DNA of 64,000 nt from IMG/VR virus record IMGVR_UViG_3300021964_000016. One strand, given 5' to 3'. The notes beneath the pieces are model-generated. The model was not told the origin of the DNA and made no database searches. It saw only the letters and a program-made list of their open reading frames with translations. A program made the position numbers and the translations under genes. Origin of the DNA: a virus. The first letter of the stretch is position 1, and every line of letters starts with the position of its first letter. This document shows, piece by piece, positions 22,648 through 60,535 of the stretch.

Positions 22648-24423
22648 TTATACCGTACCAACCACTTCTTCAAAATCAAGTCCGCCACGAACAGCGACGA
22701 AGTTGAGAGTGATGAAGTTGATAGAGTAGGCAGGTTTGATGAATACTGAAGCGACCAGTTCGTTTCGAGCAATTACTTCTGGAGTATTGTTTCTCTCGTC
22801 ACATTGAACAAAGAATGCGTCAATACCGCGTCGAGCTTGAATCTCTCGCAAAAGAGGTTCAACGATGGCAACAAACTCTGAGCGAGTAAATTCATCGTTA
22901 AACTCGAACATAAAGTTACGAGCAGCGATAGCGATTGATTTCTCGATCGCGAGGAACAAACGTCGCACGTTAATCCTATCAAAGGCAGATGGACGAGATT
23001 GCTTAGTCTTGTCGCCGAACAACAAGATTCCTCGACCTGCGAACTGTACGATTGGGTTTACACCCGCTTTGTACAGAGAATCGCGGTTTGCTTTTGTAGG
23101 AGAATATGCGAGATTGGTTACTCCCTGATATAGTCCTCTTCGCTCACCAGCAGGTGAGTACCATGGTCCAAAGTTTGCGTCAGTAGCAGCCAATAGACCA
23201 GCAGTAGTAGAAGCAGCAGGGATGTAAATATAATTATCATTATACTTATCGTAAACTCGAAGATAGTTATTATCTACAATCAAGTAGTTAGAACCAGTGA
23301 ACCTATCTGTTGTAGCAAGAGTATCGGTTACTGGGGTGATGTTATTAACAACTGCTGCGCGGTTTGGAGAAGTTACGACAACACAATCCTTACGGGTTGT
23401 TTGTGCAATTCCAACAAGGTCGTTTACAATAGTTACTTGATCATCAGCAGTAGACAATCCAGGGGAGACCAAGATTTGTACATCAATCTCGTCCTTGTCT
23501 TCGAAGTTATCGAAACCCAGTAGGTAATCTCCAACAAGAAGAGTTCCAGGGTCAGAACCACCACCAAGAGCAGCACTAGCAGAATCTTCAGACCAAGAAG
23601 AGTTGTCAGCATAGTTGGTGCTTGATCCACTAGGTGCGTTGCCCCAGTTATCCCCTTTGGCGAAGTAGGTTTTATCTGAGTCGAAATCGCCGAACCACAA
23701 GTATCTAGAACCGTTGTTGATAACAGTCTTGATGTAGTTATCGCCACCATCTTCGGTCTTTGCACCAAGTGCAAGGGAAACATACGGGAAAACTTCCAAT
23801 ACGGTTCCTTTCGTTCCGGAGATGAGTCCGTCTGAGTCGATTACAGCAATATGGATTTCGTCATTAGTTACGGTTCCAGGTTGCTTGGTTGCCCAGTCAG
23901 AAGTTCCTGGGATCCCATCAAATTGGCCGGCATACGTCCAATTTTCCCAATAAGTTGCAGTATTAGAAGAACCTGCAGATTCACCGCCCTCAATAAAGAA
24001 GGCAGAAACTTTCAGAGAATTTCCAAGATCTCCTGGATATTTTGCTATCCACATATCCGCTGTTGGGGCAGTTCTATCAAAATGATCCTCGTTCTCAATG
24101 AGAATACCATTGGTTGTGGAGTTAGCATTTGAAGCTGAATCTGATCCAGATGCGCGAGTTATTTGTCGGTTTACGATAAGGTTTCCAGAATAACGTAGAT
24201 ACTGAGCAGCAGAGAAGTAGTCAACTGCACGAGACGTATCTGGGGTACCAAATACTTCTGCGAGTTGTGCTTCGTTCTCAATGCGAGTAGGAACGTCTAC
24301 TGGACCCCACTTAAATGACCCAACCATACCACTAAGTGAAGTCTCGACATTAGGTGCAACACCAGTAAGGTCGATTTCCTTCACAACAATAGCAGGTGAG
24401 ACTGAAGGTGTAGTCAGTGCCAT
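22648..24423 (-). CDS. gp18: Tail sheath protein
   Basis: SPAIVVKEIDLT, PWYSPAG, GDKT, SAFDRINVRRLF, FEFNDEFTR. Confidence 0.98.
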   Translation of the reverse strand: MALTTPSVSPAIVVKEIDLTGVAPNVETSLSGMVGSFKWGPVDVPTRIENEAQLAEVFGTPDTSRAVDYFSAAQYLRYSGNLIVNRQITRASGSDSASNANSTTNGILIENEDHFDRTAPTADMWIAKYPGDLGNSLKVSAFFIEGGESAGSSNTATYWENWTYAGQFDGIPGTSDWATKQPGTVTNDEIHIAVIDSDGLISGTKGTVLEVFPYVSLALGAKTEDGGDNYIKTVINNGSRYLWFGDFDSDKTYFAKGDNWGNAPSGSSTNYADNSSWSEDSASAALGGGSDPGTLLVGDYLLGFDNFEDKDEIDVQILVSPGLSTADDQVTIVNDLVGIAQTTRKDCVVVTSPNRAAVVNNITPVTDTLATTDRFTGSNYLIVDNNYLRVYDKYNDNYIYIPAASTTAGLLAATDANFGPWYSPAGERRGLYQGVTNLAYSPTKANRDSLYKAGVNPIVQFAGRGILLFGDKTKQSRPSAFDRINVRRLFLAIEKSIAIAARNFMFEFNDEFTRSEFVAIVEPLLREIQARRGIDAFFVQCDERNNTPEVIARNELVASVFIKPAYSINFITLNFVAVRGGLDFEEVVGTV

Positions 24424-24495
24424 GTTTGTTTCCTCTTTCGATCGAAAAATTATATGCTAGCATTATAAGGTCGACGCTTAGGCGTTCAATGTATT

Positions 24496-24503
24496 TATTT
24501 ATA
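24496..24503 (-). promoter_or_regulatory. T4-type late promoter TATAAATA upstream of gp18
   Basis: Exact consensus, intergenic. Confidence 0.85.
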
Positions 24504-24519
24504 ATAATCCGGATCTACG

Positions 24520-35009: not shown

Positions 35010-38000
35010 TTATCCTAGAGCAACCGCAAACGCAATTGCTTCGTTGGTTGACGCAAAACTTGCTGAGTCGGCATTGGCACCTGCTGGTCCAGTTTCTCCT
35101 CTTTGTCCTATGGAAGAATATACTTGCCACGTGCTATTTATATAAATGAACTCAATGATACTTTGTCCGAGATCAAGTTCAAAATCATCAGCATACCCCT
35201 CAATCGTGCTTCCGTTTCTTCCTATAATTAGGGAGTTTGTAGAGAAGTTACCAACATCTATGATCTTAACATAATCGCCTGTAGATGGCGATGCTGGGAG
35301 AGTAACAGTAAAACTTCCACCAGTGGTATCTGCTGCAATTCTTTGAGAAGAAGTTGCTGTTACGTTACTGGTTACTGCGGTATAGTTAGTAGAGAAAACA
35401 CGGAAGTCCGAATCAAATCCAAGATAACTACCGCGCAAGGCACCAAAGTTAAACGTACCCAATTCAAAAGAAGAATCGTCAAAGTTGATTGTTTGATCTG
35501 GTACAGAACTATCTAATCCATCTTGAATCAGATTTGTGAAAACATACCACTCACCGTTTGTCGCGTCTCTTACAAAACCGCTTCGGCGAATAGTAGAACC
35601 ACCATCTGTCGAATATCTACCGACGACACCCATATCAACAGTATCTTGAGAATTACTGTCGGCAACTTTGATGATCGCATTTGTAATACGAAGGTCGTTC
35701 TGAGACGTAATATTTTGTGTCCCTTGAACAGTAAAGTCTCCGGTAATGACCAAATCGCCGTTAATAGTGGCAGCACTAAATTCTACTGAATCTGATGTGC
35801 CAACACTTTGTCCGATAGAAATAACACCAGTGCCAGAACTATATGATACACCAGTTCCAGCAGAGAAATGCGCCCTTGTTTCAGATGCACTTGGTCCTTG
35901 GTAAGATATGATTCCAGTAGCAGGATTATAGGAGAGACTTCCGTCTCCTCCACCGTCATTTACATCGATAGCATTCTTAGCATCAGAGTCTGCACGAGCA
36001 GTTGTGTAATACAGATTAGAACCTTCGCTAAGGTTTGTTGTGCTAGAAGCACCCAAATCACTATCAAAGCGAGAAGTCGTGTAATATAGATTACTTCCTT
36101 CTATTAGATCGCCAGTATTGTGATTGCTAATGTCTGAAACAGTACCAGTTACATCACCAATGAAGTTGCCATTCGCTTGAACATTACCAGTAGCAAATAT
36201 ATCAGTACCACGAAGGTTTCCACCGATACCAAGACCACCAACAAGAACTAAAGAACCATTGGTTTTAGCAGTGGAGTTTGTGGAAGAAAATAGTTTTATA
36301 TCACCATTACTATCCATGGACACAAGTGCTGTGCCCCCAGATAAATCGTATGGAGATTCTCCAACATTTTTTCTTATTCTTAATCCGAAGTTATTAGAGG
36401 GATACCCAATAACCATCTGGTTTGAGTCAGCAGTTCCAGTAACACCAATATAATGCCTGAACTGATTTTTTATCCCAAGGGCAATTGCTGTAGAAGTATT
36501 CGCGCTATCGTTGGATGCAAATAAAAATGTGGTATTTTGAGAGTCTCCATAAAACGAGTTCTCGTTATAAGACAAACCACCGTAGTTTTGCTGGTATGCA
36601 ACGGTTGACCCAAGAGTTATACTAGTGCTAGCAGAAAGAGTACCAGAAGAAATGCTTGTTGAAGAAAGGGTATTAATCTTAGCAGAATCATAGGTCAAAT
36701 CCTGCCCAGATAATTTGGTTATATAACCACCTTGTACATCGACACTATCAGCAGTGATTAGCGCAAATACAACATTGTCAGTAGTTCCGACTGATTGACC
36801 AATCGCAACCTCACCATCGATAATTGTTACACCTGTACCACCAGAAAAATGTGCGCGTGCTTCAGAGGCAGAAGGACCAGTATAAGTAAAGACACCACTG
36901 GCGGCATCATAACCAAACGAACCATCGCCGCCTGCATCAGTAGCAGATACCGCATTCTTTGCATCAGAGTCTGCACGAGCGGTGGTGTAATAGAGGTTTG
37001 TTCCTTCTGCTACATTGGTTGTGGTTTTTGTAGCAAGTCTAACATCAAAGTCGCTATCTGACCTTGCGGTTGTGTAATAGAGGTTAGTTGAACCTTCTGA
37101 TAGTTGATCTGTATTATTGTCACCAAAGTCACTATCAAAGCGAGCAGTCGTGTAATATAGGTTAGTTCCTTCAGAAACATCGGTAGTGGATTTGGTCGCT
37201 AATCTAGTATCAAAATCTGTATTAGCGCGAGCAGTGGTGTAATAAAGATTAGAACCTTCCGTTAAATTTGATGTGGTTTTTGTAGCAAGTCTATCATCAA
37301 AAGCACTATCCGCTCTTGCAGTGGTGTAATAGAGGTTTGTTCCTTCGCTAAGATTTGTAGTTGACTTTGCAGCGAAGTCAGTATTAAAATCAGAACTGGT
37401 ATAGTGTTCACCTATGGTTACAGAAAACTGTCCTGTCGCTGAGTCATACGAGAGGTCTCCAGCAGCAGAAAAGAGTCCTTTAATTTGAGTAGCAGAACGA
37501 TCTGAGTCTGTGTAAGAAATAACGCCAGTGTTAGCATCATACGACAGGTCGCCAGTAGCAGAAATAAGCAACCTTACAGCAGAGTCTGTTCTTTGACTAT
37601 ATGAAAATTCGCCAGTAGAGGAATTGTAACTCAGATCGCCCGCAGCAGAAAACAGACCCTTGATTTGTGCAGCGGTTCTATCAGAATCAGTATAACTAAA
37701 TGTGCCAGTGGAAGAATTGTAACTCAAGTCTCCGCCAGCAGAGAAAAACCCTCTTATATCTGCTTGGGTTCTCTGTGTGAAACTGAAAACCCCGTTTACG
37801 GAATCATAAGTTAGGTCTCCACTCGCATCAAACAGACCCCTAATTTGTGCAACGGTTCTATCAGAATCTGTATAAGAGATGACACCAGTTGCAGAATTAT
37901 AACTTAGATCGCCATTAACAGAGATAGCATTTTTAGCGTCACTATCTGCTCTTGCAGTGGTGTAATAGAGGTTAGTGCCTTCTGTTAAGTCTGAAGTAGA

Positions 38001-38894
38001 CTTCGTTCCAAAGTCAGAGTCAAAGTCAGAGGTTGCATAATTTGTTGTTTCTGTAAAAGAAAAATCACCAGTGTTGGGGTCATAACTCAGATCTCCAGAA
38101 GCAGAAAATAAACCCCTAATTTGTGCGGGGGTTCTATCAGAATCAGTATAACTTATAACACCAGTGTCGGGGTCATAACCTATATCACCAGAACCTGATA
38201 AAGCATGTCTGGCATCACTGTCAACCCTTTCGAGGGTATAATATAGATTAGTTCCTTCAGTAAGATCTGATGTAGACTTCGTAGCAAAATCAGAATCAAA
38301 ATCTGCTTTTACATAGGACGTTACGCCAGATAAACCAGAACCGTCTCCAACAAACGAGTTGGCGGTTACTGTGCCAGAAAAGTTTGCGGAGTCGCCGCTC
38401 AACAAACCTTTTACTGTCATACCTGAAAGAGTTATATAAACTCTTGCGTTAGTGGATGCGCTTTGAGAAGCAGCGTCTGCTGCTCCGCCATCAGGAACGT
38501 CTAAGTAAAACCCAATTCTTCGAACACCAGTGCTATCAGCAGAATCAATAGAAGCGAGCCAGAGTTCGTCGCTTAGATGCCCCATACCAGATTGTATGGT
38601 GTTCGAAGTATACTCGGTGACAAACTTTAATTTGACAGTATCTTCTGGCCAGGAGACAAACTGAGAACCAGAACCACCGAGAGATAGAGTTTCTAATATG
38701 ACTACAGAATCAAAAGACGTACTGGTATTAAAATACTTGGATCCAGTTATAGTTTGACCAGTAGACTTTGTTACATATTCGTTTGAACCAGTTTTTATAT
38801 CTGTCAAGTCAGAGTCTAGGGCAAGGAAGTTGGAATCCATCTCATCAAATGTAAGAGCACTGCCCTTATTATTTCTTAATGTGAGATCTGCCAT
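35010..38894 (-). CDS. Long tail-fibre-like repeat protein (1294 aa)
   Basis: N-terminal LTLRNNKGSALTFDEMDSNF, nine EGxNLYYT-type repeats, eight GD[LI]xY repeats, and C-terminal FTVTLPASPSTGD...IIGRNGSTIEG and IAFAVALG. Confidence 0.8.
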   Translation of the reverse strand: MADLTLRNNKGSALTFDEMDSNFLALDSDLTDIKTGSNEYVTKSTGQTITGSKYFNTSTSFDSVVILETLSLGGSGSQFVSWPEDTVKLKFVTEYTSNTIQSGMGHLSDELWLASIDSADSTGVRRIGFYLDVPDGGAADAASQSASTNARVYITLSGMTVKGLLSGDSANFSGTVTANSFVGDGSGLSGVTSYVKADFDSDFATKSTSDLTEGTNLYYTLERVDSDARHALSGSGDIGYDPDTGVISYTDSDRTPAQIRGLFSASGDLSYDPNTGDFSFTETTNYATSDFDSDFGTKSTSDLTEGTNLYYTTARADSDAKNAISVNGDLSYNSATGVISYTDSDRTVAQIRGLFDASGDLTYDSVNGVFSFTQRTQADIRGFFSAGGDLSYNSSTGTFSYTDSDRTAAQIKGLFSAAGDLSYNSSTGEFSYSQRTDSAVRLLISATGDLSYDANTGVISYTDSDRSATQIKGLFSAAGDLSYDSATGQFSVTIGEHYTSSDFNTDFAAKSTTNLSEGTNLYYTTARADSAFDDRLATKTTSNLTEGSNLYYTTARANTDFDTRLATKSTTDVSEGTNLYYTTARFDSDFGDNNTDQLSEGSTNLYYTTARSDSDFDVRLATKTTTNVAEGTNLYYTTARADSDAKNAVSATDAGGDGSFGYDAASGVFTYTGPSASEARAHFSGGTGVTIIDGEVAIGQSVGTTDNVVFALITADSVDVQGGYITKLSGQDLTYDSAKINTLSSTSISSGTLSASTSITLGSTVAYQQNYGGLSYNENSFYGDSQNTTFLFASNDSANTSTAIALGIKNQFRHYIGVTGTADSNQMVIGYPSNNFGLRIRKNVGESPYDLSGGTALVSMDSNGDIKLFSSTNSTAKTNGSLVLVGGLGIGGNLRGTDIFATGNVQANGNFIGDVTGTVSDISNHNTGDLIEGSNLYYTTSRFDSDLGASSTTNLSEGSNLYYTTARADSDAKNAIDVNDGGGDGSLSYNPATGIISYQGPSASETRAHFSAGTGVSYSSGTGVISIGQSVGTSDSVEFSAATINGDLVITGDFTVQGTQNITSQNDLRITNAIIKVADSNSQDTVDMGVVGRYSTDGGSTIRRSGFVRDATNGEWYVFTNLIQDGLDSSVPDQTINFDDSSFELGTFNFGALRGSYLGFDSDFRVFSTNYTAVTSNVTATSSQRIAADTTGGSFTVTLPASPSTGDYVKIIDVGNFSTNSLIIGRNGSTIEGYADDFELDLGQSIIEFIYINSTWQVYSSIGQRGETGPAGANADSASFASTNEAIAFAVALG

Positions 38895-38940
38895 TATTAG
38901 TTTTCCTTGCTAAACTCAATATAAAGGTGCAATTAATGAG

Positions 38941-38960
38941 GGGGGCGATGAGTCGCCCCC
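38941..38960 (-). other. GC-rich intergenic hairpin (terminator or mRNA-stability element)
   Basis: GGGGGCGA-CTCA-TCGCCCCC with no clear U-tract. Confidence 0.5.
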
Positions 38961-38991
38961 AACTAAACTAGGTTCAAAACCAAACTTTGAA

Positions 38992-39372: not shown

Positions 39373-39384
39373 TTTTTATTTCTC

Positions 39385-39536: not shown

Positions 39537-39554
39537 TCCCTTTTGCTTTACAAA

Positions 39555-39905: not shown

Positions 39906-40060
39906 TATCGATTAACCTGCTTCTAACGATATTTATTTATATAAATTAGTTGGAGACAATCTTACTCAGAAGAATTATAATTTTTCGAATATTTTTGCGC
40001 CACTATCGATTACCCTGCTTCTAACGATATTTATTTATATATTTAGTTGGAGACAATCTT
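39897..40060. repeat. Imperfect ~66-bp direct repeat (39897-39963 and 39995-40060), each copy containing a TATAAATA late promoter
   Basis: TTGCGCCA[T/C]TATCGATTA[A/C]CCTGCTTCTAACGATATTTATTTATATA..TTAGTTGGAGACAATCTT occurs twice. Promoters at 39934-39941 and 40032-40039. Confidence 0.9.
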
Positions 40061-43000: not shown

Positions 43001-44920
43001 TATGACAGAAACACCAGTTACTAGTGCGTTTCCACCTTGGTCATTGATTTCTCTTTCTGATGTGCCAGAGACAACCACTTCCTGAGTTGTTAAAGCACCA
43101 GAACTTGTGATTACACGTTCAGCGACACCAGATACAGTTTCTTCTTGAGATACTAATGTTCCGGAAGTAACCAGAACACGCTCTGCTATACCAGATACAG
43201 TTTCTTCTTGAGATACTAAAACCCCAGAACTTGTTACTATACGTTCAGAGACGCCAGAGATAACAGAAGATTGAGCAGACAAAGTTCCCGAAGGAACCAT
43301 AATTCTTTCACCAACGCCATCTACAATTACATTGTCGTCAGACTCAACGCCAGAAACAACAGAAACAATTGATCGTTCAGCGTCACCTGCGACTACGGCG
43401 ATACCAACTTCGTCAGCAGTTAGTTCTGCTTCTATTACAATCGTTTTTACAATAGATACAGATATATCTGAATTATCTGCTTTAGGTGAACCAGAAGAAT
43501 TTATGGTCCTTTCAGCAACTCCAGATACTATACTGTCTGAGGTTACTAACGAGACCGAAGAAGCGATAACACGCTCTGCTATACCAGATACGGTTACATC
43601 TTGCGATACTAAAACCCCAGAACTTGTTACTATACGTTCAGCGACACCAGATACAGTTTCTTCTTGAGATACTAATGCACCAGAACTTGTGATTACACGT
43701 TCAGCGACACCAGATACAGTTTCTTCTTGAGATACTAATGCACCAGAACTTGTGATTACACGTTCAGCGACACCAGATACAGTTTCTTCTTGAGATACTA
43801 ATGTTCCGGAAGCAACCAGAATACGCTCTGCTATACCAGATACGGTTACATTTTGAGACACTAATGTGCTAGTGCTGTTAATTACTCTTTCTGCAACACC
43901 AGATGCTATAGAATCTGTAACAACGAGAGAATTACCGCTTTGGTCGTCTATCTCTCGTTCACCAACGCCAGCAACGGATTCTTCACTCTGAAGAACACCT
44001 GAAGCAACCAACACACGTTCAGAGACACCAGAAACAACTGCTTCTTGAGAAGTTAAAGTGCCAGAAGATACCAAAGACCTTTCAGCAATGGCGGAAACAG
44101 TGGAAGATCCGGAAACAAGAGAATTGCCACCGTTATCGTCTATCTCGCGTTCTGCATTACCAGCGACAGATTCTTCACCTTGTAGGGCACCAGAAGCAAC
44201 CAATACACGTTCAGAAATACCATCTACTGTAGATGGCGAATCAACTAAAGTTCCAGTGCTATTAACGATCCGTTCGGCAACAGCAGATACAGTAGAAGAA
44301 CCAGAGGCAACAGAGTTTCCTCCTTGATCATCAATTTCTCTCTCACCAATTCCAGCAACAGATTCTTCACTTTGTATGTTACCAGAGGCAACGAGTACAC
44401 GTTCAGAAACGCCAGATACAGTTGAAGCACCTGTAGAGAGAGCATTACCACCTTGGTCGTCGATCTCTCGTTCTGCGTTACCAGCAACAGATTCTTCACC
44501 TTGAAGAGCACCAGAACCAGTAATAACACGTTCAGAAACGCCAGAAAGGTCGGAAGTTTGAGATACTAGAATACCAGTACTGACAATTATTCGTTCAGCA
44601 ACAGCAGATACAGAAGAGGAACCAGAGGCAACGTTGTTGCCGCCTTGGTCGTCGATCTCTCGTTCTGCATTACCAGCAATAGATTCTTCGCCTTGAAGAG
44701 CACCAGAAGCAACTAGGACACGTTCAGAGATACCAGAAACAGAAGAATTTTGAGACTGTAAAGAGCCAGAAGCAATTGATGCGACCAATAATGTAGCAAC
44801 ACCAGAAACGCTAGAAGATTGCGACTGTAGTTCTACGGTGAGGGTGTTTATGTCACCGATATATCCATCAGCAACATACCCGTCTACTACATATTTGTCT
44901 AGGGTGGCAGAGGAGGCCAA
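40043..44920 (-). CDS. Giant acidic S/V/G/E-rich tandem-repeat protein (1625 aa), probable virion appendage
   Basis: Dozens of 20-23 aa units of two types (VSGVSERVLVASGxxxSxE and SVAGNAEREIDDQGGNS). TTG start, with a CTAAATA late-type box at 44952-44958. Confidence 0.75.
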   Translation of the reverse strand: MASSATLDKYVVDGYVADGYIGDINTLTVELQSQSSSVSGVATLLVASIASGSLQSQNSSVSGISERVLVASGALQGEESIAGNAEREIDDQGGNNVASGSSSVSAVAERIIVSTGILVSQTSDLSGVSERVITGSGALQGEESVAGNAEREIDDQGGNALSTGASTVSGVSERVLVASGNIQSEESVAGIGEREIDDQGGNSVASGSSTVSAVAERIVNSTGTLVDSPSTVDGISERVLVASGALQGEESVAGNAEREIDDNGGNSLVSGSSTVSAIAERSLVSSGTLTSQEAVVSGVSERVLVASGVLQSEESVAGVGEREIDDQSGNSLVVTDSIASGVAERVINSTSTLVSQNVTVSGIAERILVASGTLVSQEETVSGVAERVITSSGALVSQEETVSGVAERVITSSGALVSQEETVSGVAERIVTSSGVLVSQDVTVSGIAERVIASSVSLVTSDSIVSGVAERTINSSGSPKADNSDISVSIVKTIVIEAELTADEVGIAVVAGDAERSIVSVVSGVESDDNVIVDGVGERIMVPSGTLSAQSSVISGVSERIVTSSGVLVSQEETVSGIAERVLVTSGTLVSQEETVSGVAERVITSSGALTTQEVVVSGTSEREINDQGGNALVTGVSVISGVAERVVDDQGGNALVSGSSTISAIAERSLVSSGTLTSQEAVVSGVSERVLVASGNIQSEESVAGNAEREIDDQGGNSLVSGTSVVSGVSERVLVASGALQGEESVAGNAEREVDDQGGNSLVSGSSTVSAIAERSLVSSGTLTSQEAVVSGVSERVLVASGVLQSEESVAGNAEREIDDQGGNSLVSGTSVVSGVSERVLVASGSLQGEESVAGNAERVVDDQGGNSLVSGTSVVSGVSERVLVASGNIQSEESVAGNAEREIDDQGGNSLIVTSSFVSGNAEREIDDQGGNSLGVTDSLVSGISGRVLVASGNIQSEESVAGNAEREIDDQGGNSVVSGDVTVSGVAERVLVASGVLISQEEVFFGISERVLVASGNIQSEESVAGNAEREIDDNEGNSIFASDSIIVGVSERTITGSGNIQSEESVAGNAEREIDDQGGNSLTVTASLVSGIAEREIDDQGGNSLTVTTSIVSGISERVLVASGNIQSEESVAGNAEREIDDNEGNSISSGDVTVSGIAERILVASGSLASQEEVVSGISERVLVASGNIQSEESVAGNAEREIDDQGGNALSVGVSTILGVAERTIVASGAVASQEAVVSGEAELTKVGRGTLVSDSSLVSGIAERVLVASGNIQSEESVAGNAERVVDDQGGNGLVSTDSLITGVSERIITGSGNIQSEESVAGNAEREIDDNEGNSIFASDSIIIGVSERIITGSGNIQSEESVAGNAEREIDDQGGNSVVSGDVTVSGISERVLVASGNIQSEESVAGNAEREIDDNGGNSVISGNVTVSGVAERVLVSSGALTSQEANLSGIAERVLVASGNIQSEESVAGNAEREIDDQGGNSVISGTSVVSGVSERVLVASGSLSVVDVQVVCAAERVISSSVVLEAGESSVTSVARRSINAVGILEAQDVSTVATVTITRNSALIPLAGSFTVQKPRTTIIKSRKDTGTIEFNSTSSYGVSSILSKKKKIVSN

Positions 44921-44954: not shown

Positions 44955-45626
44955 TTAGGGGGTTTCAATTTCCTCGATTAGCATTTCTGACATTTTTCTA
45001 CCAGTTTCATCACAATTAAACATGAATGCCATTGTACATCTCAAAGAATTAGTACGAGCGGCATGGTACAGTAACTTATCAGGTTCATCATATGTACCAT
45101 AATATCCATACTTACATTGCCAACCTTGCACGTCTGGTATTATAATGTGTTCTTTTGTCAATGGATCTATATGCTCCCATTGCCCGTCGCCAGTTTCGGA
45201 CCAAGTAAAGATAATATTGTATCCAGGAGCATTAGCATTATTATGCCAACCTATAAACCCACCAGGAGGATAAATGGCACTCAAAGCGCGATTTCTTGCT
45301 CCAGACCAAGAACAAAGAGCAGAAACAGAATTTTCAATCTCTTCTAATATTCGGATCTTTTCTGACGCGTCATTGTATTCAAACTTTCCTACTTGAATAT
45401 CAACTCCTCTTAGCATCTCAGGATACCCATCATGCTCTCTACCTTTCCAAACAATGTGATCAAGATAATCTTTGTTCAACCAATCTTCTGCGTTTTCTTC
45501 TCTAGGAATGTTCCTAAGTTTATCCAGATCTATAGACTGTACCGTATTTGATATTGAATGTAAGATACCTTGCAAAGTTTCATTAGCGATATTTACTGGG
45601 TTCATTCCAGGTTTTAAAAAACTCAT
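44955..45626 (-). CDS. Double-stranded beta-helix (2OG-Fe(II) oxygenase-like) protein
   Basis: YPPGGFIGWHNN (HxN rather than HxD) ... LYHAART ... RCTMAF. Confidence 0.55.
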   Translation of the reverse strand: MSFLKPGMNPVNIANETLQGILHSISNTVQSIDLDKLRNIPREENAEDWLNKDYLDHIVWKGREHDGYPEMLRGVDIQVGKFEYNDASEKIRILEEIENSVSALCSWSGARNRALSAIYPPGGFIGWHNNANAPGYNIIFTWSETGDGQWEHIDPLTKEHIIIPDVQGWQCKYGYYGTYDEPDKLLYHAARTNSLRCTMAFMFNCDETGRKMSEMLIEEIETP

Positions 45627-45627: not shown

Positions 45628-46380
45628 TCAAATGATCTCTATGTCAGATATTTTTCTAGATGCTTTGGCGGATAAATGTATCAACGAAGTTCCCTCTGGC
45701 ATTGGGTGGGTGTGTCTGTTAAGGGAAGTCCAATAGTTCCACCTTAAATCTTCCTCAAAAATGCCAACCTTTAGTTCTTTGTACTTAGGTTCTTTCTCAA
45801 CCAACCACCAAAGAGTGAACTGATCCCAGCATGCTAGTTCTCTGGGGTAATTTTCGGTGTCCCAAGTAACCCCATCTTCTTTGGTCGGCCACCATTTATT
45901 AGCATGTTGTTTGACGTATAATTCGTACCAATCTTTCATAAACTCCATGATAATGTCAGTTTTTTTATACAAACAAACAGCACCGCAAAGAGTGAAAGTT
46001 CCTCCAGGAAATTCCGTGTCCATAAATATATGCCATCTATCTCTAGGCAACCCTGTGAACACCATATCATTATCACCAAGTTCTTCAAAAACATTGGCAA
46101 TATTTTCACTGATACATGTCATATCGGCGTCGATATAAAAAGTGTTATCATAGGGGGTTTGTGACATACCCCAGAGTTTTGCCCTGTAGTGGTTATCGCA
46201 AATAATTAAATGATCTGCTTCCTCTGCCCTAGAGTCTAAGAACCTCTCTTCGGTAACAAGACAAATGTTTGCTTCTGGGTAATAATCTTTTATATCAGAA
46301 ATAAGATTGGTTGCCCAAGAATAATATATTGGTTCGTTTGACGCAACGATCAGATATCCATTATTTTGATTCGGTTTCAT
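45628..46380 (-). CDS. GT-A fold glycosyltransferase (GT8-like)
   Basis: AKLWGMSQTPYDNTFYIDADM (DxD), CGAVCLY, WDQFTLW, RWNY, IHLS. Confidence 0.8.
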   Translation of the reverse strand: MKPNQNNGYLIVASNEPIYYSWATNLISDIKDYYPEANICLVTEERFLDSRAEEADHLIICDNHYRAKLWGMSQTPYDNTFYIDADMTCISENIANVFEELGDNDMVFTGLPRDRWHIFMDTEFPGGTFTLCGAVCLYKKTDIIMEFMKDWYELYVKQHANKWWPTKEDGVTWDTENYPRELACWDQFTLWWLVEKEPKYKELKVGIFEEDLRWNYWTSLNRHTHPMPEGTSLIHLSAKASRKISDIEII

Positions 46381-46840
46381 TCAAAGCAAATCCAATACCA
46401 AGTTCTTCCATCATAATAAGTTGAGCATATATGTTCAACTCTACTATATTTTTAGATCTGCGCATTTTACTTTTCAGATCTTTATTTTTGGTATTTTTTA
46501 TTTCGTCAATTTCGAGCATTTTTATTTTAGCATCGAAGAGTTTTTCAAGTTCTCTTGCTTGATCTTCTGCCTTTCTACGATGATGCTCTTCGTCTTTCTC
46601 TTGCGCTTTGCGCTCTCTTCGCTCTTTTGTGTTTTGATCGATCTTTTCTTCGCCGACCTGATCAAGAAGTTCTTCGTAATCTGGATTTGGGTCTCCATCT
46701 ACATCAAACTTCCTCACAGTCAAGACCTGAGAAATTTCTCTACCTTGCGTATCTGTGATCACGAGAATTGCTTCAGCTCGATCTTTACTCTCATCGTGCC
46801 AAAAAGCATTGTCTAACCATTTTCTACTGCTATATGCCAT
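46361..46840 (-). CDS. Hypothetical charged helical protein (possible fibre chaperone)
   Basis: Start likely ATG 46840 (SD GGAG). K/E-rich coiled coil. Confidence 0.7.
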   Translation of the reverse strand: MAYSSRKWLDNAFWHDESKDRAEAILVITDTQGREISQVLTVRKFDVDGDPNPDYEELLDQVGEEKIDQNTKERRERKAQEKDEEHHRRKAEDQARELEKLFDAKIKMLEIDEIKNTKNKDLKSKMRRSKNIVELNIYAQLIMMEELGIGFALNETESK

Positions 46841-46886
46841 AATATTCTCCAAGTGTTGACATAATTTATTTCGATTTTATATATAG

Positions 46887-49322
46887 TTAAGTTTCAGACA
46901 CCCTACAATATAGAGTGTATGTTTCTATCGTCTCAGTTGCAGCAACAAGGGTCTGTCCTGCAAACTGAGAAGAATAAGTATCTGAATAGTTTCTAGAACC
47001 AGAATATCCGATTGCCGAGATAAAAGTCCTTTGTCCAGTATATTGAGCAGAATAGTTACGGGAACCATCATATTGCCCAACTACTGATGCATAGTTTCTA
47101 GAACCACCGTATTGATCAACCACAGATGCATAGGTTCTAGAACCACTATAGGCACCAGAATACGTTCTTGAACCAGAATAAGCAGAAGAATAGTTTCTAG
47201 AACCAGCAAAATCTTGTGCAACTACTCTGGTTCCAGCATATTGGGCAGAATAGTTTCTAGAACCAGCAAAATCTTGTGCAACTACTCTGGTTCCAGCATA
47301 TTGGGCAGAGTAGTTTCTAGTTCCATCATACTGCCCTGTTACAGAAGCATAGTTTCTAGAACCAGAATAAGCAGCAGCATAGTTTCTAGAACCACCATAT
47401 TGACCAACTACTGATGCATAATTTCTAGAACCGTCAAAGTTCGCTGGGTTATTTCCAGTAAAGTTTCCTGGAGTCACCACAACCAGAGGACCCAAACGTT
47501 CGCCTGCGTAGGTACCAGCATAGTTGCGAGAACCAGCAAAATTATTAGGTCTGACGCCCTGAAAGGATCTTCCGCCCAAGAAATTTTCTACTCTAACCAC
47601 CGTTGCGTCGAAAGTGCCTGGTTCTGCGGGTCCCGCTACTGGCACGACTCTCGTACCAGCGAAGTTCGCAGGACCAGAAAAGTTTGCTGGGCCAACTCCG
47701 TCGTATTTTCTTACACCAGAAAAGTTATCTACGCTGACAGATGGGTTCTTGCCACCACTATCAAATGTCACTGAAAAGTTTGCGTTATATCCTCTGGTAA
47801 AAGATCTAGATCCAAGATAATTTGTAACACCAGCGAAATTTTGCGGAACTACTCTTGTTCCCGCGAAGTTCCTAACACCCGCATAGCTTCCTGTATAAGA
47901 AACGCTGTATTGGACGTTTGGTGATATAAAATTTTGTACAATTGTGCCTGCAAAGTTGGCAGTATAATTTCTGCTTCCGCCAAAGTTATTTGCATAATAG
48001 GTAAGTACGACATTTTCTCTTGTCCCAGCATACACCGCAGGACGGGTACCAGCATATGAAGCAGCATAGTTACGGGAACCACCGTAAACTCCAGCATAGT
48101 TTCTGGAACCACCATATTGTCCAACTACTGATGCATAGTTTCTTGAACCAGAATAAGCAGCAGGTCCGTAATTACGAGAACCAGCAAAATCTTGTGCAAC
48201 TGTTCTGTCTCCAGCATATTGAGCAGAATAGTTTCTAGAACCAGCGAAATCTTGTGCAACTGTTCTGTCTCCAGCATATTGAGCAGAATAGTTACGAGAA
48301 CCATCATATTGTCCAACTACTGATGCATAGTTTCTGGAACCGCCATATTGTCCAACTACTGACGAATAGGTTCTTGAACCAGAATAAGCACCAGAATAGG
48401 TTCTGGAACCAGAATAAGCAGAAGAGTAGTTTCTAGAACCAGCAAAATCTTGTTCAACTACTCTGCTTCCAGCATATGAAGCAGCATAGTTTCTTGAACC
48501 AGCGAAGTCCCCAGTATACTGTTGTTCTGATAAAGTGTTTCTTGTATCAAGTGCTGTACCGCGAGCGACCCAAGTACCAGTCTCTCCATTACCAGTAGGA
48601 GTTTGAGAGGAAGGTAGTAATAAATAATCGCCAACACCAGAATGTTTTCTGGCATACAAAACAGATTGCCTTAGAGAAATCTTTTGATCCGAGTCAGTAA
48701 ACTCTTGAACTGCCATCGGAGAAGTAGATTTAATTTCTATAATATTATATGTTGGTGAAGAAGGTTCAACCGCTGTTTCCCTTCTCCAAATACTATAGGT
48801 ATTTGCTGTTCCGTTTGTTAATGTATCAGAAAATACATCAGAGTCCCATTTTTTCCAGTCTCCACTAGGCGCAGAAGTTGCAACTCTGAAAGAAAGTCCT
48901 GGATATTCGTTAGAGTGTAGTTCCTCTGCTACTCTGGTTGACCATCGTAGGAAAGCAACATTGCTCATTTGGTGTAAGTTACCAGAACTGTCTGCTGCTA
49001 TTGGAAGGTCGTTATAAGGAATGGCAGCAGAGTCATCTAACTGATATATTGTAGTTGTGGTAGAACCAGTAGACAAAGCACTAGCAGGATGAGTCCCTAT
49101 TGCTTCGTTATAAAATGTATCAGTGAAACTACCAATGCTGGTAGAGGAAGTTGCATTAGCAGCAACAGAACCATTATATCGACTTGACTTATTGGCGAAA
49201 GATTCAACTACCTTTATACCTGCCTGATACCCAAACCATTCTTCAGAAGCAACAGAAATCCCCTGAAAGTCTCCAGAGTCGTTTTTCAGAGCCAATGGTA
49301 TGGATTTGAAAAAGGCAGACAT
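46887..49322 (-). CDS. YSGSRNY-repeat fibre-like protein, paralog A (811 aa)
   Basis: N-terminal domain shared with paralog B (TDTFYNEAxGTHP, TGTWVARGxALDTRNT), 10/13-aa [YF]xGSRNY repeats, C-terminal TYTLYCRVSET. Confidence 0.75.
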   Translation of the reverse strand: MSAFFKSIPLALKNDSGDFQGISVASEEWFGYQAGIKVVESFANKSSRYNGSVAANATSSTSIGSFTDTFYNEAIGTHPASALSTGSTTTTIYQLDDSAAIPYNDLPIAADSSGNLHQMSNVAFLRWSTRVAEELHSNEYPGLSFRVATSAPSGDWKKWDSDVFSDTLTNGTANTYSIWRRETAVEPSSPTYNIIEIKSTSPMAVQEFTDSDQKISLRQSVLYARKHSGVGDYLLLPSSQTPTGNGETGTWVARGTALDTRNTLSEQQYTGDFAGSRNYAASYAGSRVVEQDFAGSRNYSSAYSGSRTYSGAYSGSRTYSSVVGQYGGSRNYASVVGQYDGSRNYSAQYAGDRTVAQDFAGSRNYSAQYAGDRTVAQDFAGSRNYGPAAYSGSRNYASVVGQYGGSRNYAGVYGGSRNYAASYAGTRPAVYAGTRENVVLTYYANNFGGSRNYTANFAGTIVQNFISPNVQYSVSYTGSYAGVRNFAGTRVVPQNFAGVTNYLGSRSFTRGYNANFSVTFDSGGKNPSVSVDNFSGVRKYDGVGPANFSGPANFAGTRVVPVAGPAEPGTFDATVVRVENFLGGRSFQGVRPNNFAGSRNYAGTYAGERLGPLVVVTPGNFTGNNPANFDGSRNYASVVGQYGGSRNYAAAYSGSRNYASVTGQYDGTRNYSAQYAGTRVVAQDFAGSRNYSAQYAGTRVVAQDFAGSRNYSSAYSGSRTYSGAYSGSRTYASVVDQYGGSRNYASVVGQYDGSRNYSAQYTGQRTFISAIGYSGSRNYSDTYSSQFAGQTLVAATETIETYTLYCRVSET

Positions 49323-58178: not shown

Positions 58179-58189
58179 TTCTTATTTCC

Positions 58190-59719
58190 TTAAAGGTCTA
58201 TTACAATCTTAATGTCTTCTGTCTGTTCATTATCTCTGGTAACTGGTGACCTGTTGTCTATATAGATCACTTCTCCAGAGAAGTTGTTTACCTCAGCAGG
58301 GCGAAGAACGGGTTGCCCTCCAGCTGGGTTGGGGATAACAGAAATACCACTACCTCCAGCACCAACAGAAACAGTGTCAGAATCTGTGAAAGGTTTAAAT
58401 CCCGTTTCTCTTGTTTGATGAACATACAAAATATCGTTCGTCTCGTCAAAATAATCTAGGACTGCTCTTGCGTTAGAAACACTACCTATAACAGTTTCAT
58501 CACCAAGAATATTGGAATAATTCAACCCGCCCGCAACATACAATTTTTTAAGCGCATTAAGTGTAACATCGCTTGCAGCAGAATCTCCAGAAAACCCAGG
58601 ATATTGTGCAGAATCTTTTAGTGGGTTTTTAATAATCCCTATTTGACGGAAATCGTTAGTTACTTGGAAATCGTTATTTTCTGTTCCGTCTAAAGTTGCG
58701 TTAAACATTATAGCAGAAGAGTTTAAATCTTTTATGGGGTTTCCTCCCATACCAGAATCATTAGCAATAATTGCGCGCAGTTTTGCCCCAGTTCCGCCAC
58801 CTCCAGATACAGTAATAGAAGCATCAAAATAATTTTTGCCGAAAGTAAACGTGCCTACACTGTCCCCGTCAGTAGAGTCTGCCTTCATAATTACTTCATA
58901 TATTGATCCATTATGAATACGAGCAAATGCTTGCGCTGGAGTAACATCAGAATCTAATTGAGCAGAATCGAACTTTGTTAACGTATTTCTAGAAATTGGT
59001 GTAATGGTTATTGTCGGTTTAGAAGTAAAACCAGAACCACCGCTGTCTACTGCTATTCCGATGATTTGTCCTGGAATCGCATTGTTTTGTAATCCAAATT
59101 GTTGTCTACGAGAAACTGATAAATTATCGAAAGGAATATTTGTTTGAGAAGAGTCTAACACCTTTTCAACAGGCATGTAAGCAGAAGTAATATATTTTCT
59201 GGATTCCGCTGCGCCAATATTGTACATGAACTTCCAGATATATCCATCGTCACCAGCAGAAAAGGGGTTTCCTGAGGTGTCTATTGGTTTATACAGAGAT
59301 TGTCTAGGAATTGCTTGAGAGGTATACCCTTTTTGAAGGCAAACATAAACATTATCGTCGTCAGTAAGAACGTAATACGGGTTTTGAATATCGCCAGAAG
59401 CAGAAATCGTTGTATTAGAATTATACTCATCGTCCCATGCTTCATAAAAGTTACCAGCAGTCCAACTGTGCCTTGGTACAACATAGGAAACGTCCGGAAC
59501 CAATTTCATTGACTGGATAGATGCTTGAAAATCTTTAACGGAGCGATTGCTTGGAGTTGGTGCAGGTGGTTCTACGTCAGAATCCCATTCCTCTGATCTT
59601 CCAATCGCCAAATAAAATCTATCCGAGTCTTGCCCTGAATCTAATCCAACGTTTTGGGTGCTGTTATAGAGATCAGTTAATATATCTCTTTTTAGACTTT
59701 CAGTTATAGTAGCGGCCAT
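58190..59719 (-). CDS. gp8: Baseplate wedge subunit
   Basis: YLAIGR, VVPRHSW, YYVLTDDDNVYVCL, DGYIWKFMY, DFRQIGIIKNP, SGEVIYIDNR...QTEDIKIVI. Confidence 0.9.
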   Translation of the reverse strand: MAATITESLKRDILTDLYNSTQNVGLDSGQDSDRFYLAIGRSEEWDSDVEPPAPTPSNRSVKDFQASIQSMKLVPDVSYVVPRHSWTAGNFYEAWDDEYNSNTTISASGDIQNPYYVLTDDDNVYVCLQKGYTSQAIPRQSLYKPIDTSGNPFSAGDDGYIWKFMYNIGAAESRKYITSAYMPVEKVLDSSQTNIPFDNLSVSRRQQFGLQNNAIPGQIIGIAVDSGGSGFTSKPTITITPISRNTLTKFDSAQLDSDVTPAQAFARIHNGSIYEVIMKADSTDGDSVGTFTFGKNYFDASITVSGGGGTGAKLRAIIANDSGMGGNPIKDLNSSAIMFNATLDGTENNDFQVTNDFRQIGIIKNPLKDSAQYPGFSGDSAASDVTLNALKKLYVAGGLNYSNILGDETVIGSVSNARAVLDYFDETNDILYVHQTRETGFKPFTDSDTVSVGAGGSGISVIPNPAGGQPVLRPAEVNNFSGEVIYIDNRSPVTRDNEQTEDIKIVIDL

Positions 59720-59731
59720 TTCCTTTACCTA

Positions 59732-60535
59732 TTATGCTAATGTGATGCCAGTATCTGTAATCAGATGCCAAGCAGAGTCTGACCAGATTAAAGAACAAGC
59801 AGCGTGTTGAGCGACTTGTATTGTTGTTCCACCCGCCAAATTTGCTGGGGTGATCGTAGCAGTACCAGTATTGATATTTACAAACTTTTTCTCATCTCCT
59901 ATCGTTACACCGTCTGGTAGGGCAACCGCAAAAGGTGTAGATGATTTGTTAAGAAAAGAAGTTGGAAGTTTGACGCTGGCAGTAGATCCTGTAGTTGTAA
60001 TTGTTTCAGTAGTAAACACAAGTCTGCTGTCTACATGAACTACGCCGTTGTTAAGTGGATGAAGATGAAGATCTACATCGCCTGAATCCCCCGTAACCCC
60101 AATGACAACTCCATAAGAAGAATCGCCGTTTTTAACTTCAAAATGATTAACTGCGTTTGGAGTACCATTAAAAGAAATAATTGGGTTATCGTTGCTATCG
60201 TGAATGTCATCGGTAATGACGTCAACCAACGTTTTGTTGGTCAGGATATCTGTCGTGTCCTTTAATACAACGGTGCCAGTAGCATTAGGGAGAGTGATAG
60301 TTTTATTACTACCTGAAGTAGTTGCTGCAACTAATTTTGTATCGTATGTCCCATTTTCAAAAATAATTGAACCGTCAGAATCAAAACTGATGTTTGTGGT
60401 CGAAGAGACAGAATCCCCAAACAGCAGAAATAAAGACCGAAAATTTGTATTGATCTTATCTGCTGCCTGACGTAAAGTATCGCCAGTACCATCATTGGCA
60501 GTAGTACCGTTGTTTAAAATTTCTCTGGTTGCCAT
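59732..60535 (-). CDS. Baseplate tail-fibre connector (gp9/gp10 N-terminal domain)
   Basis: GTTANDGTGDTLRQAADKINTNF. Start likely ATG 60535. Confidence 0.8.
   Translation of the reverse strand: MATREILNNGTTANDGTGDTLRQAADKINTNFRSLFLLFGDSVSSTTNISFDSDGSIIFENGTYDTKLVAATTSGSNKTITLPNATGTVVLKDTTDILTNKTLVDVITDDIHDSNDNPIISFNGTPNAVNHFEVKNGDSSYGVVIGVTGDSGDVDLHLHPLNNGVVHVDSRLVFTTETITTTGSTASVKLPTSFLNKSSTPFAVALPDGVTIGDEKKFVNINTGTATITPANLAGGTTIQVAQHAACSLIWSDSAWHLITDTGITLA

Follow-up and report, generated by a model that had tools for sequence, protein, structure and literature searches.

Mycobacteriophage virions are reportedly glycosylated by phage-encoded glycosyltransferases, a finding credited to Freeman et al. 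2023 (cited in PMC12801897). In staphylococci, SdgB and SdgA O-GlcNAcylate Ser-Asp repeat adhesins; DSD is the minimal motif of SdgB, which sets a precedent for cytoplasmic Ser O-glycosylation at DSD (PMC8561734). The Maf and GT42 (CstII-type) nonulosonate transferases are described as O-glycosylating flagellin in the cytoplasm at surface-exposed Ser/Thr (PMC4065374, PMC11339370, PMC3426422), a precedent for Ser O-glycosylation ahead of export (PMC4065374). Bacteroidota share a general O-glycosylation sequon, D-(S/T)-(A/I/L/V/M/T) (PMC8550257). Here we analyse a 64,000-nucleotide stretch of phage DNA (the window) in which the tripeptide D-S-[A/D], written DS[AD], lies ~6x above chance in tail, neck, baseplate and fibre proteins. 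Judged from the sequences, its behaviour is that of a site recognised by an enzyme, which would probably serve to coat the virion with sugar. We found no published account of a DS[AD] motif. The clade that carries it consists of uncultured marine T4-like phages, and this phage falls in clade B.

A preliminary description had counted DS dipeptides by hand and held that they are enriched in outward-facing virion proteins. Every count was reproduced, including the five in the portal and the zeros in the UvsW-like protein, gp47, gp17 and gp19, and the excess was upheld. Pooled over the region 22648-60535, DS occurs 132 times against 86.9 expected, while the reverse order, SD, occurs 92 times against the same 86.9 (a ratio of ~1) and DT is depleted (53 versus 72.2). 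DS enrichment ranges from 1.5-3.6x where SD stays at ~1, and in shuffle tests gp8 and the 1294-aa fibre reach p<=2e-4, the gp9-like protein p=0.002. Composition alone is therefore insufficient. Ser codons within DS are used as they are overall, so neither nucleotide bias nor GANTC accounts for the excess. The surplus of Asp-Ser is genuine, depends on direction and arises at the level of amino acids.

What is actually enriched is a tripeptide, DS[AD], rather than the DS dipeptide as such. DS[AD] occurs 73 times in 22648-60535 against 12.9 expected (5.7x, Poisson p ~1e-30), and the remainder of the window has 4 where 5.3 are expected (0.76x). DSD is the most enriched tripeptide (42 versus 6.2, 6.8x) and DSA reaches 31 versus 6.7; the remaining DSx tripeptides lie at ~1-1.5x, with no enrichment of DSV, DSI, DSL or DST. 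Near-cognates are depleted: DT[AD] (1 versus 10.9, 0.09x), ES[AD] (4 versus 10.0, 0.4x) and NS[AD] (3 versus 11.0, 0.27x). The third-position class first proposed, [DAGST], was right for D and A and otherwise too broad for the window; in relatives, S, G and N are enriched there too. A ~3x third-position preference for A and D recurs in five unrelated protein families, and is not seen in gp6.

The idea that amino-acid composition, expanded repeats or biased nucleotides created the excess is hardly credible, and is already refuted by the shuffle tests and the SD and codon controls. The carrier proteins are indeed rich in D and S, and once the fibre, gp8 and the gp9-like protein are set aside, the dipeptide excess is marginal (77 versus 63.5 in the window). 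Repeats, dismissed as a cause in the preliminary description, do hold part of the fibre signal: 17 of the 35 DS sites of the 1294-aa fibre lie inside four internal repeats (LYYTxxRxDS, SYTDSDR, DL[ST]YDS and DFDSDF). The dismissal stands for gp8 and the gp9-like protein, which are non-repetitive and yet significant on shuffling, and the tripeptide excess replicates across hundreds of diverged homologues.

Three further readings raised earlier are disfavoured. The Bacteroidetes D-(S/T)-x sequon is a poor model: the phage motif does not admit Thr, its most frequent form is DSD, and none of DSV, DSI, DSL and DST is enriched. Ca2+-binding turns do not fit, as DxD overall is not enriched and DSD alone is. 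As for Asp beta-hydroxylation, the window encodes a single clear 2OG oxygenase, and this is a Tet/JBP enzyme of DNA bases. A 223-aa ORF of the fibre-module cassette is weakly oxygenase-like; its Atlas neighbours are a Phage_tail_APC cluster (TM 0.69) and a 2OG-Fe(II) oxygenase (TM 0.54), and its feature matches to hydroxylase clusters fall below 0.9.

Features of the window, with observed versus expected counts of DS and DS[AD]
Feature	Coordinates	Strand	Basis	DS	DS[AD]
gp18 tail sheath	22648..24423	-		5 vs 3.6	4 vs 0.61, p=0.004
gp15, neck/tail-terminator pair with gp14	27125-27928	-	PHROG 227 and 460, cited for the pair		3 vs 0.24
gp14, neck/tail-terminator pair with gp15	27928-28827	-	PHROG 227 and 460, cited for the pair		2 vs 0.25
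Fibre-related protein, 269 aa	31225..32034	-		5 vs 2.0, p=0.04	2 vs 0.28
Tail fibre, 1294 aa, largest motif carrier	35010..38894	-		35 vs 16.7, p<=2e-4	23 vs 2.95, p=1e-13
Virion protein, 126 aa	38992..39372	-	PHROG 3758	3 vs 1.2	2 vs 0.29
Ser-rich repeat protein, 1625 aa, exposed-looking, motif-free	40043..44920	-	17.6% Ser	8 vs 13.2	0 vs 1.7
Cassette ORF, 223 aa, double-stranded beta-helix / tail-assembly-chaperone-like model	44955..45626	-	Atlas structural neighbours		none
GT-A, glycogenin-like (GT8-like) glycosyltransferase in fibre module	45628..46380	-	AF2 pLDDT 93.3, Foldseek
Cassette ORF, 163 aa, conserved cassette member	46361..46852	-	Homologues in relatives
Fibre paralogue, 811 aa, weakly enriched	46887..49322	-		6 vs 4.4	3 vs 0.67
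Fibre paralogue, 747 aa	49325..51568	-		8 vs 3.6	4 vs 0.40, p=8e-4
Whisker-like protein, 224 aa	51582..52256	-	No match in family searches	5 vs 2.0	4 vs 0.36, p=5e-4
VrlC-like DUF4815 giant virion protein, 1896 aa	52488..58178	-	PF16075, PHROG 358	21 vs 13.9	15 vs 2.0, p=4e-9
gp8 baseplate wedge protein, 509 aa	58190..59719	-	PHROG 438, E 3e-73	13 vs 4.7	7 vs 0.75
gp9/gp10-like baseplate connector, 269 aa	59732..60541	-	PF07880, 35 bits	7 vs 2.0, p=0.002
Baseplate wedge subunit, 441 aa	60593..61918	-	PF23786		2 vs 0.43
gp6 inner baseplate protein, motif-free contrast	61924..63834	-		2 observed	0 vs 0.5

The carriers are sheath, neck, peripheral baseplate and fibre proteins. In gp15 the three sites (residues 223, 246 and 257 of 267) all lie within the final 45 residues, and the three-site excess is repeated in gp15 of the relatives G001, G002 and G003. 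DS[AD] is missing from capsid and replication proteins as well as from the tube, gp6, the terminase and the 1625-aa repeat protein, and non-virion proteins in 80 island neighbourhoods carry it at 0.55x. The label outward-facing is inexact: two exposed-looking proteins, the 1625-aa repeat protein and a 980-aa fibre-like protein (2 versus 0.8), are counted as not enriched. The contrast within the baseplate extends to clade-B relatives. There DS is the second most enriched of 328 dipeptides in the 441-aa wedge subunit (246 versus 112) and the second most depleted in gp6 (69 versus 148, rank 309/310), and the gp9-like family stands at 2.4-2.6x.

Structural proteins of clade B hold 815 DS[AD] against 135 expected in one count and 877 against 144 in another (~6x). 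The same folds are motif-poor in T4 (0.85x), cyanophage S-RIM2 (0.87x) and G006 (0.74x), and clade A gp8 has 25 against 33.7 expected. Where the gp9-like N-terminus aligns to T4 gp9 (1pdp), T4 has GDQ and ADG where the phage has GDS and DSDG. Since these folds manage without the motif, fold necessity is ruled out, and a lineage-specific reader fits best.

The distribution also bears on a rather unlikely though possible reading, in which the motif is an unmodified, lineage-specific structural element: a D-S-(small) turn or cap at the starts of repeat units and loops, spread by exchange of fibre and baseplate modules and kept by descent. In relatives, DS opens the tandem units DSSYLKSII and DSSYIQSQA and period-5 h-D-S-[AS]-x runs, and here about half of the fibre sites are repeat-borne. 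A lineage-specific gp8 insertion, LDSDVTPAQA, matches the fibre repeat TDSDRTPAQI, and eight gp8 sites are kept in 30-86% of homologues. However, the motif also sits on globular, unrelated folds (sheath, gp14, gp15, gp8), and a turn propensity would not usually bar Thr, Glu and Asn so strictly or leave near-cognates depleted. The gp8 sites (DS[AD] at residues 31, 46, 251, 256, 369, 379 and 446) speak to the same point. On an AF2 model (pLDDT 84), 11 of 13 DS lie in coil; 68-76% of sites are in coil, mostly loops, with no tie to strand ends or helix starts. Sites turn over among homologues while the count is maintained, and Asp and Ser within DS are conserved no better than Asp and Ser elsewhere.

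The reading that we prefer, for which the case is about evenly poised, is that DS[AD] is a tag in this clade's sheath, neck, peripheral baseplate and fibre proteins whose Ser is O-glycosylated by a phage enzyme. D-S-[A/D] would be a short recognition tag in loops and repeat units of virion tail proteins, extended in relatives to D-S-S and more weakly to D-S-G and D-S-N. Late in infection, a phage-encoded cytoplasmic enzyme would recognise the tag and modify its Ser, with O-glycosylation the most plausible chemistry. The glycan would then be lengthened by further transferases and tailoring enzymes, giving the assembled tail a glycan or charge coat. The analysis shows the motif's statistics and strictness, its spread over proteins and clades, the GT-A fold of 45628-46380 and the co-distribution with a gene island; we infer the Ser modification itself, its sugar nature and the identity of the reader.

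Which enzyme might read the tag was addressed by co-occurrence. The preliminary description had named the glycosyltransferase at 45628-46380. On its structural model this ORF is a genuine GT-A fold and a glycogenin-like transferase: Foldseek ranks glycogenin and the catalytic domain of UGGT highest (E 4e-9, TM 0.53-0.56), D84-x-D86 and H235 are invariant across 33 homologues, and Pfam, PHROG and NCBIfam searches gave no match. That it reads and glycosylates the DS sites itself is nevertheless very unlikely and is largely refuted by the co-occurrence test. The closest relatives of solved structure have proteins or glycoproteins as substrates, and the gene lies among fibre genes in a cassette syntenic in C48C1. 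But it is missing from the motif-richest genomes, G002 (4.6x) and G003 (2.8x), even in a family-profile search, and it is present (52% identity) in the L061 record, whose gp8 lacks any DS and whose structural proteins are only weakly raised in DS[AD] (5 versus 3.1). It may be an accessory or fibre-specific transferase. The adjoining 163-aa ORF has homologues in the G001, G002 and G003 fibre modules, whether or not the GT8-like gene lies next to them.

The best candidate for the reading enzyme is instead a small CstII/Maf-like family of ~200 aa, here called A3, found in relatives within a glycan-gene island that falls outside this window. Members occur in G001, G002, G003, G005 and C48C1, all with motif-rich virion proteins; the family was not found in G006 or in the complete S-RIM2 and T4 genomes, and no homologue lies within the 64-kb window. 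Against the PDB, an A3/A4 profile matched essentially only the CstII/CstI sialyltransferases, through two collinear motifs at marginal E values of 0.015-0.09. Nothing passed the Pfam threshold (PF01973 reached 12.4 bits in one member). In G001, A3 adjoins genes for a sulfotransferase, two GT25 enzymes, a GT-A, a HAD plus NTP-transferase and a methyltransferase, and the island in relatives is also described as containing a sugar-phosphate nucleotidyltransferase gene. A3 co-varies with the motif over eight genomes, confounded by phylogeny: the positive genomes all belong to a single gp8 clade, which in effect reduces the co-distribution to one evolutionary event and a weak reversion in L061. The support is further tempered by three observations: the fibre motif keeps step with structural repeats, as it would if its role were purely structural; DS sites in gp8 show no more than average conservation; and the 1625-aa and 980-aa proteins are not enriched.

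The same island bears on a reader other than a glycosyltransferase, which we consider improbable. It could be a Ser kinase of acidophilic type, a different enzyme that modifies Ser, or a decoration or assembly protein, or an ion, binding at the D-S-[A/D] loops. The statistics point to a trans-acting reader and are silent on its chemistry, Ser with acidic flanks is a classic kinase context, and the G001 island includes genes for a sulfotransferase and a methyltransferase. Yet Pfam scans of the window found no kinase, generic metal-binding DxD is not enriched, and sugar chemistry dominates the co-varying island. Of the original proposal, decoration of DS sites by a phage enzyme gains from the strict motif, its spread over many unrelated folds, its absence from T4, S-RIM2 and clade A homologues, and the island; the enzyme that it named does not survive.

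Set beside the described systems, the phage motif differs from the Bacteroidota sequon in shunning Thr and in having its commonest form, DSD, outside that sequon, although both are three-residue motifs with Asp before the modified Ser and DSA conforms. Substrates of the Bacteroidota system are exported and modified in the periplasm, whereas a virion is built in the cytoplasm. As with SdgB, the acceptor in the phage would be an Asp-flanked Ser and the glycans would coat a fibrous protein that is exposed; DSD, the minimal SdgB motif, is the most enriched tripeptide here. The staphylococcal acceptor is a long unbroken SD repeat, whereas the phage has isolated tripeptides in many unrelated proteins and favours DSA equally; the staphylococcal enzymes are GT-B (GT4) with a DUF1975 insert, whereas the phage candidates are GT-A or CstII-like. 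Maf enzymes are not known to have a strict sequon; the phage motif excludes Thr and demands a preceding Asp, and A3 is far smaller and below the Pfam membership threshold. Mycobacteriophages are another phage family with other hosts and target proteins; in both cases phage transferases lie near structural genes and are proposed to decorate the virion surface. The Maf parallel would lie in cytoplasmic modification of an exposed Ser on a protein later built into an external filament, and in the GNGPS...CN and SG...G-x-D motifs that A3 shares with these transferases.

A recount reproduced all of the per-protein counts of the Asp-Ser dipeptide (DS) given in the preliminary description, and DS is more frequent than composition predicts. 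gp8 carries 13 DS against 4.7 expected, the gp9-like protein 7 against 2.0, and the 1294-aa fibre 35 against 16.7 (shuffle p<=0.002). Pooled over the motif region, DS occurs 132 times and the reversed dipeptide SD 92 times, each against 86.9 expected, while DT is depleted (53 versus 72), as is ES. Because SD stays near 1 while DS is in excess, local richness in Asp and Ser is not the cause, and composition or D/S-rich loops are ruled out. A nucleotide-level cause, by which GAY-TCN codons would make GANTC, was also ruled out: Ser codons inside DS are used as in Ser overall, with AGY codons enriched too, so the effect lies at the protein level. Repeat expansion had been dismissed earlier as an explanation. 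This holds for gp8 and the gp9-like protein, which are non-repetitive, and for gp15, gp18 and the VrlC-like protein, but not for about half of the DS sites of the 1294-aa fibre, which lie in four internal repeat motifs.

The enriched unit is longer than the dipeptide. Within the motif region DSD is found 42 times where 6.2 are expected (6.8x) and DSA 31 times where 6.7 are expected. Every other DSx is at about 1-1.5x (DSV 1.5x, DSI 1.2x, DST 1.1x) save DSL, at 0.6x. Near-cognates are scarce in the window, with one DT[AD] against 10.9 expected, four ES[AD] against 10.0 and three NS[AD] against 11.0. The same strictness is repeated in relatives, DT[AD] being at 0.6x in clade B, the gp8 clade to which the window phage belongs. 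DSD in clade-B wedge proteins reaches 205 against 29, and Ala and Asp at the third position are enriched alike, about threefold, in five unrelated protein families. The observation is thus confirmed, and is stronger than first stated once the motif is read as DS[AD].

The window spans the late region of a myovirus that is T4-like but divergent, with a recombination and DNA-modification block upstream, and all of its long ORFs lie on the minus strand. Late products comprise gp6, a 441-aa wedge protein, a gp9/10-like protein, gp8, a VrlC-like giant protein and several fibre proteins, along with gp13, gp14, gp15, gp17, gp18, gp19, gp20 and gp23. The identity of gp8 to the nearest deposited phages, Phage C48C1 and cyanophages, is below 30%. 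A DNA base hypermodification cassette encodes a P-loop nucleotide kinase (PF18751), an amino-acid:DNA transferase (PF18724), a GNAT protein, a weak amidoligase, a GATase_6 protein and a Tet/JBP 2OG-Fe dioxygenase (PF12851). A 185-aa ORF between the neck and fibre genes, otherwise without annotation, shows a weak N-terminal match to PF13469 (sulfotransferase; residues 3-53, E 0.0096) that is below cutoff.

Coordinates of the features discussed and DS[AD] counts per protein
Feature	Position	Strand	DS[AD] observed / expected	Basis
DNA base hypermodification cassette	window 2073-8833	minus		Pfam scans
Motif region	window 22648-60535
185-aa ORF	window 30652-31209
1294-aa fibre with TDSDRTPAQI repeat	window 35010-38894
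223-aa cassette ORF	window 44955-45626
Glycosyltransferase ORF	window 45628-46380
gp8 private insertion (residues 251-265)	window ~58925-58969
gp6	window 61924-63834
1294-aa fibre			23 / 2.95
VrlC-like protein			15 / 2.0
gp8			7 / 0.75
gp18 sheath			4 / 0.61
224-aa protein			4 / 0.36
747-aa protein			4 / 0.40
gp15			3 / 0.24
gp14			2 / 0.25
Four-gene insert in relative G002	G002 38632-42102	opposite strand
Second GT8-like family member in relative G001	G001 76658-77497

DS[AD] is enriched in part of the late proteome. The motif region holds 73 DS[AD] against 12.9 expected, and the remaining window 4 against 5.3. Besides fibres, the carriers include globular proteins whose folds are unrelated. 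In the window no DS[AD] occurs in gp23, gp19, gp6, gp13, gp17, a 1625-aa Ser-rich protein or any replication protein. Nor is the motif enriched in non-virion proteins, with 0.76x in the remaining window and 0.55x in 80 enzyme-island neighbourhoods.

The enrichment follows lineage. The DS O/E of 120 gp8 homologues has a median of 2.4. DS is kept in 30-86% of homologues at the columns of 8 of the 13 DS sites of the window gp8, and Ser is almost never swapped for Thr at gp8 DS columns. A tree of 78 gp8 genes from 80 IMG/VR loci splits into two clades, that of the window phage rich in DS and that of cyanophage S-RIM2 (clade A) not. Among the enriched dipeptides of clade B, DS ranks first of 366 in gp8, and second in both the 441-aa wedge and gp9-like proteins. 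Across structural families clade B has 877 DS[AD] where 144 are expected, and clade A has 25 where 33.7 are. There is no DS[AD] excess in T4 virion proteins (6 versus 7.1), S-RIM2 (6 versus 6.9) or G006, a 131-kb clade-A genome (16 versus 21.6). Genome-wide values for the clade-B records G001, G003 and G002 are 3.3x, 2.8x and 4.6x, concentrated in fibre, baseplate, neck and sheath proteins. Individual sites drift and turn over among distant homologues while the number per protein is maintained, and no extra purifying selection on DS was seen, its Asp and Ser being conserved no better than others. At places where the window phage has GDS and DSDG, T4 gp9 has GDQ and ADG.

In gp6, the motif-free contrast (homologues in loci L002-L080), clade-B DS falls to 69 against 148 and ranks 309 of 310; clade-A gp6 is not DS-depleted (55 versus 47). 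Since SD in gp6 is about 0.6 in both clades, part of the depletion is composition segregation, and the rest may reflect avoidance of a tag in a buried ring protein. At the clade-B locus L061, gp8 has no DS where 2.9 are expected, its wedge neighbours are at about 1x, and gp6 has 6 against 4.2. These values, on small counts, resemble a concerted loss of the tag.

T4, cyanophages and clade A build the same folds without the DS[AD] enrichment, so a fold requirement cannot explain it. This weighs against a purely structural motif, a serious rival that we nevertheless consider unlikely and that has evidence of its own. In relatives' fibres DS heads tandem units of 9-10 residues and others of 5 residues, and an insertion in gp8 resembles a fibre repeat; a structural contribution of DS in fibres is still real. 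In an AF2-type model of gp8 (pLDDT 84), 68-76% of the family's DS sites are predicted to lie in coil. A helix N-cap or strand-end turn was rejected for gp8, as the sites show no positional preference relative to the modelled secondary-structure elements. Roughly 3% of homologues have the private gp8 insertion, FDSAQLDSDVTPAQAF. The core of this insertion, LDSDVTPAQA, agrees at 7 of 10 positions with the fibre repeat TDSDRTPAQI, at fibre residue 251, which suggests that short motif-bearing modules may be exchanged between fibre and baseplate genes.

A strict, directional tripeptide that a single lineage has in many unrelated virion proteins points to a reader specific to that lineage. The preliminary description proposed that exposed DS sites are decorated by a phage enzyme and named one ORF of the window as a glycosyltransferase. 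That gene call holds. Its model (pLDDT 93.3) has a GT-A fold and matches glycogenin in Foldseek (3qvb and others, E 4e-9, probability 1.0, TM 0.53-0.56) as well as the UGGT catalytic domain. The DxD and His residues (D84, D86 and H235), with a presumed role taken from the family, are invariant in 33 homologues. The ORF has no match in Pfam (including PF01501), PHROG or NCBIfam, and its GT8-like family profile has none among PDB sequences; the sole sequence-level link is to language-model neighbours carrying PF03407 or PF01501. The expected co-occurrence with DS enrichment fails. The gene is missing from the motif-richest genomes, G002 and G003, even by profile search, yet it is kept at 52% identity in the 34-kb record of L061 (G008), where gp8 lacks DS. 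This ORF is therefore probably not the enzyme reading the tag.

C48C1 shows synteny for the three-gene cassette in which the ORF sits. The adjoining 223-aa ORF is confidently modelled in the Atlas (pTM 0.89); among named structural neighbours it lies closest to a cluster of Phage_tail_APC (tail assembly chaperone) proteins, at TM 0.69, with 2OG oxygenases at 0.54. Going by such models, the cassette may be fibre-assembly machinery rather than a modification system. In G002, a four-gene insert within the fibre module (loci L112/L113) encodes a pair of GT8-like paralogues (PF01501, 24.4 bits) and an ORF that is radical-SAM-like (27.3 bits, below cutoff). Next to it lie a homologue of the 163-aa ORF of the window cassette and two proteins of extreme motif content, one with 29 DS in 393 aa, the other with 16 DS in 203 aa.

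Other fates of the motif had been raised. Asp beta-hydroxylation is disfavoured, as the window has a single clear 2OG oxygenase, the Tet/JBP DNA-base enzyme, and Ca2+-binding turns do not account for the pattern, since DSD alone is enriched and DxD in general is not. That the tag is read by a non-glycan reader of some kind seems to us improbable, more so than a structural motif.

A candidate reader emerged outside the window. A search with PF01973 gave 12.4 bits (cutoff 34.6) in one G002 ORF, which defines a conserved family of ~200 aa, here A3, with homologues in G001 and G003. A3 homologues occur in G001, G002, G003, G005 and C48C1; G006 and the complete genomes of S-RIM2 and T4 have none. 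As C48C1 is itself rich in DS[AD] (baseplate connector 15 versus 3.2, one fibre 5 versus 0.8), A3 occurs in 5 of 5 genomes with the motif excess against 0 of 3 without it. Every genome carrying A3 falls within a single gp8 clade, which reduces the association to little more than one evolutionary event. A second GT8-like family, shared by C48C1 and the three motif-rich genomes but lacking in G006 and S-RIM2, was uninformative as a discriminator, as its distribution on complete or near-complete genomes is that of A3.

A wider alignment of 26 sequences (A4) shows the motifs HILGNGPS, GCN, NSGH and VHLWGxDS, with GNGD in close clade-B members. In the PDB its profile finds essentially only CstII/CstI sialyltransferases, at marginal E 0.015-0.09 with two motifs collinear; the CstII matches came with the wider alignment only. 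Pfam gave no match for the G001 member or 10 distant members, and IMG/VR scans with two distant members found none. In the G001 island (60442-66925) the gene adjoins a sulfotransferase, a GT-A ORF, two GT25 genes, a HAD and sugar-phosphate nucleotidyltransferase fusion, a methyltransferase and a cupin. In the 80 IMG/VR loci around A3 (L125-L204), flanking non-structural genes hold 101 DS[AD] against 185 expected (0.55x). This is below the 0.74-0.87x of motif-less phages, in a count that is not independent because the ORFs are mutually homologous, and it may reflect avoidance of off-target tags.

The claim of a tag read by a phage enzyme thus survives in part: the named glycosyltransferase is probably not the reader, and a modification tag is the best reading of DS[AD], at about even chances of being right. 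More tentatively, and with somewhat less confidence, we propose that DS[AD] is a strict sequon for cytoplasmic O-glycosylation of the whole tail across a widespread clade of T4-like marine phages, with a mini CstII/Maf-like transferase starting the glycan. Sheath, neck, outer baseplate and fibres would be covered, and head and tube spared. GT25, GT-A, sulfo- and methyl-transferases could then extend and tailor the glycan, giving the virion an acidic, possibly sulfated, coat. Such a coat could affect host recognition, protease resistance and particle stickiness in seawater. Very few systems of virion glycosylation are known in tailed phages. If DS[AD] is a real sequon, the exposed tail surface of an abundant uncultured marine phage clade would be marked with residue precision. 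Glycosylated virions could then also be predicted from metagenomes by a simple signature in the sequence, and enzyme and tag would make a compact pair, maybe useful for site-specific protein glycosylation.

A literature search found no description of such a motif on phage virions and no defined sequon for any phage. The Bacteroidota O-glycosylation sequon, invoked in the preliminary description, is D-(S/T)-(A/I/L/V/M/T) (PMC8550257). It accepts both Ser and Thr, whereas the phage has 17 DT[AILVMT] sites against 55 DS[AILVMT], and 42% of phage sites fit its third-position class against 37% in the background. A sequon of this type therefore does not fit, either in its use of Thr or at the third position, where DSD is the leading form. 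Substrates of the Bacteroidota sequon are exported and modified in the periplasm, whereas the virions of tailed phages are put together in the cytoplasm.

The nearest sequence-level analogue is SdgB, a GT-B enzyme that O-GlcNAcylates a minimal DSD motif in a substrate of long SD repeats (PMC8561734). The strongly enriched DSD of the window phage is the same as the SdgB acceptor. Unlike the substrate of SdgB/SdgA, the phage sites are isolated, with two DS-DS pairs at spacing 2 and SD[AD] at 0.62x, and Pfam scans of the window proteins found no GT-B (GT4) enzyme with a DUF1975 insert. The nearest mechanistic analogue is Maf-type glycosylation of flagellin, which to our knowledge works without a strict sequon. 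It takes place in the cytoplasm, on exposed Ser/Thr, before assembly (PMC4065374, PMC11339370). The candidate A3 family shares with the Maf / GT42 (CstII-like) nonulosonate transferases the N-terminal GNGPS...CN nucleotide-sugar motif followed by SG...G-x-D.
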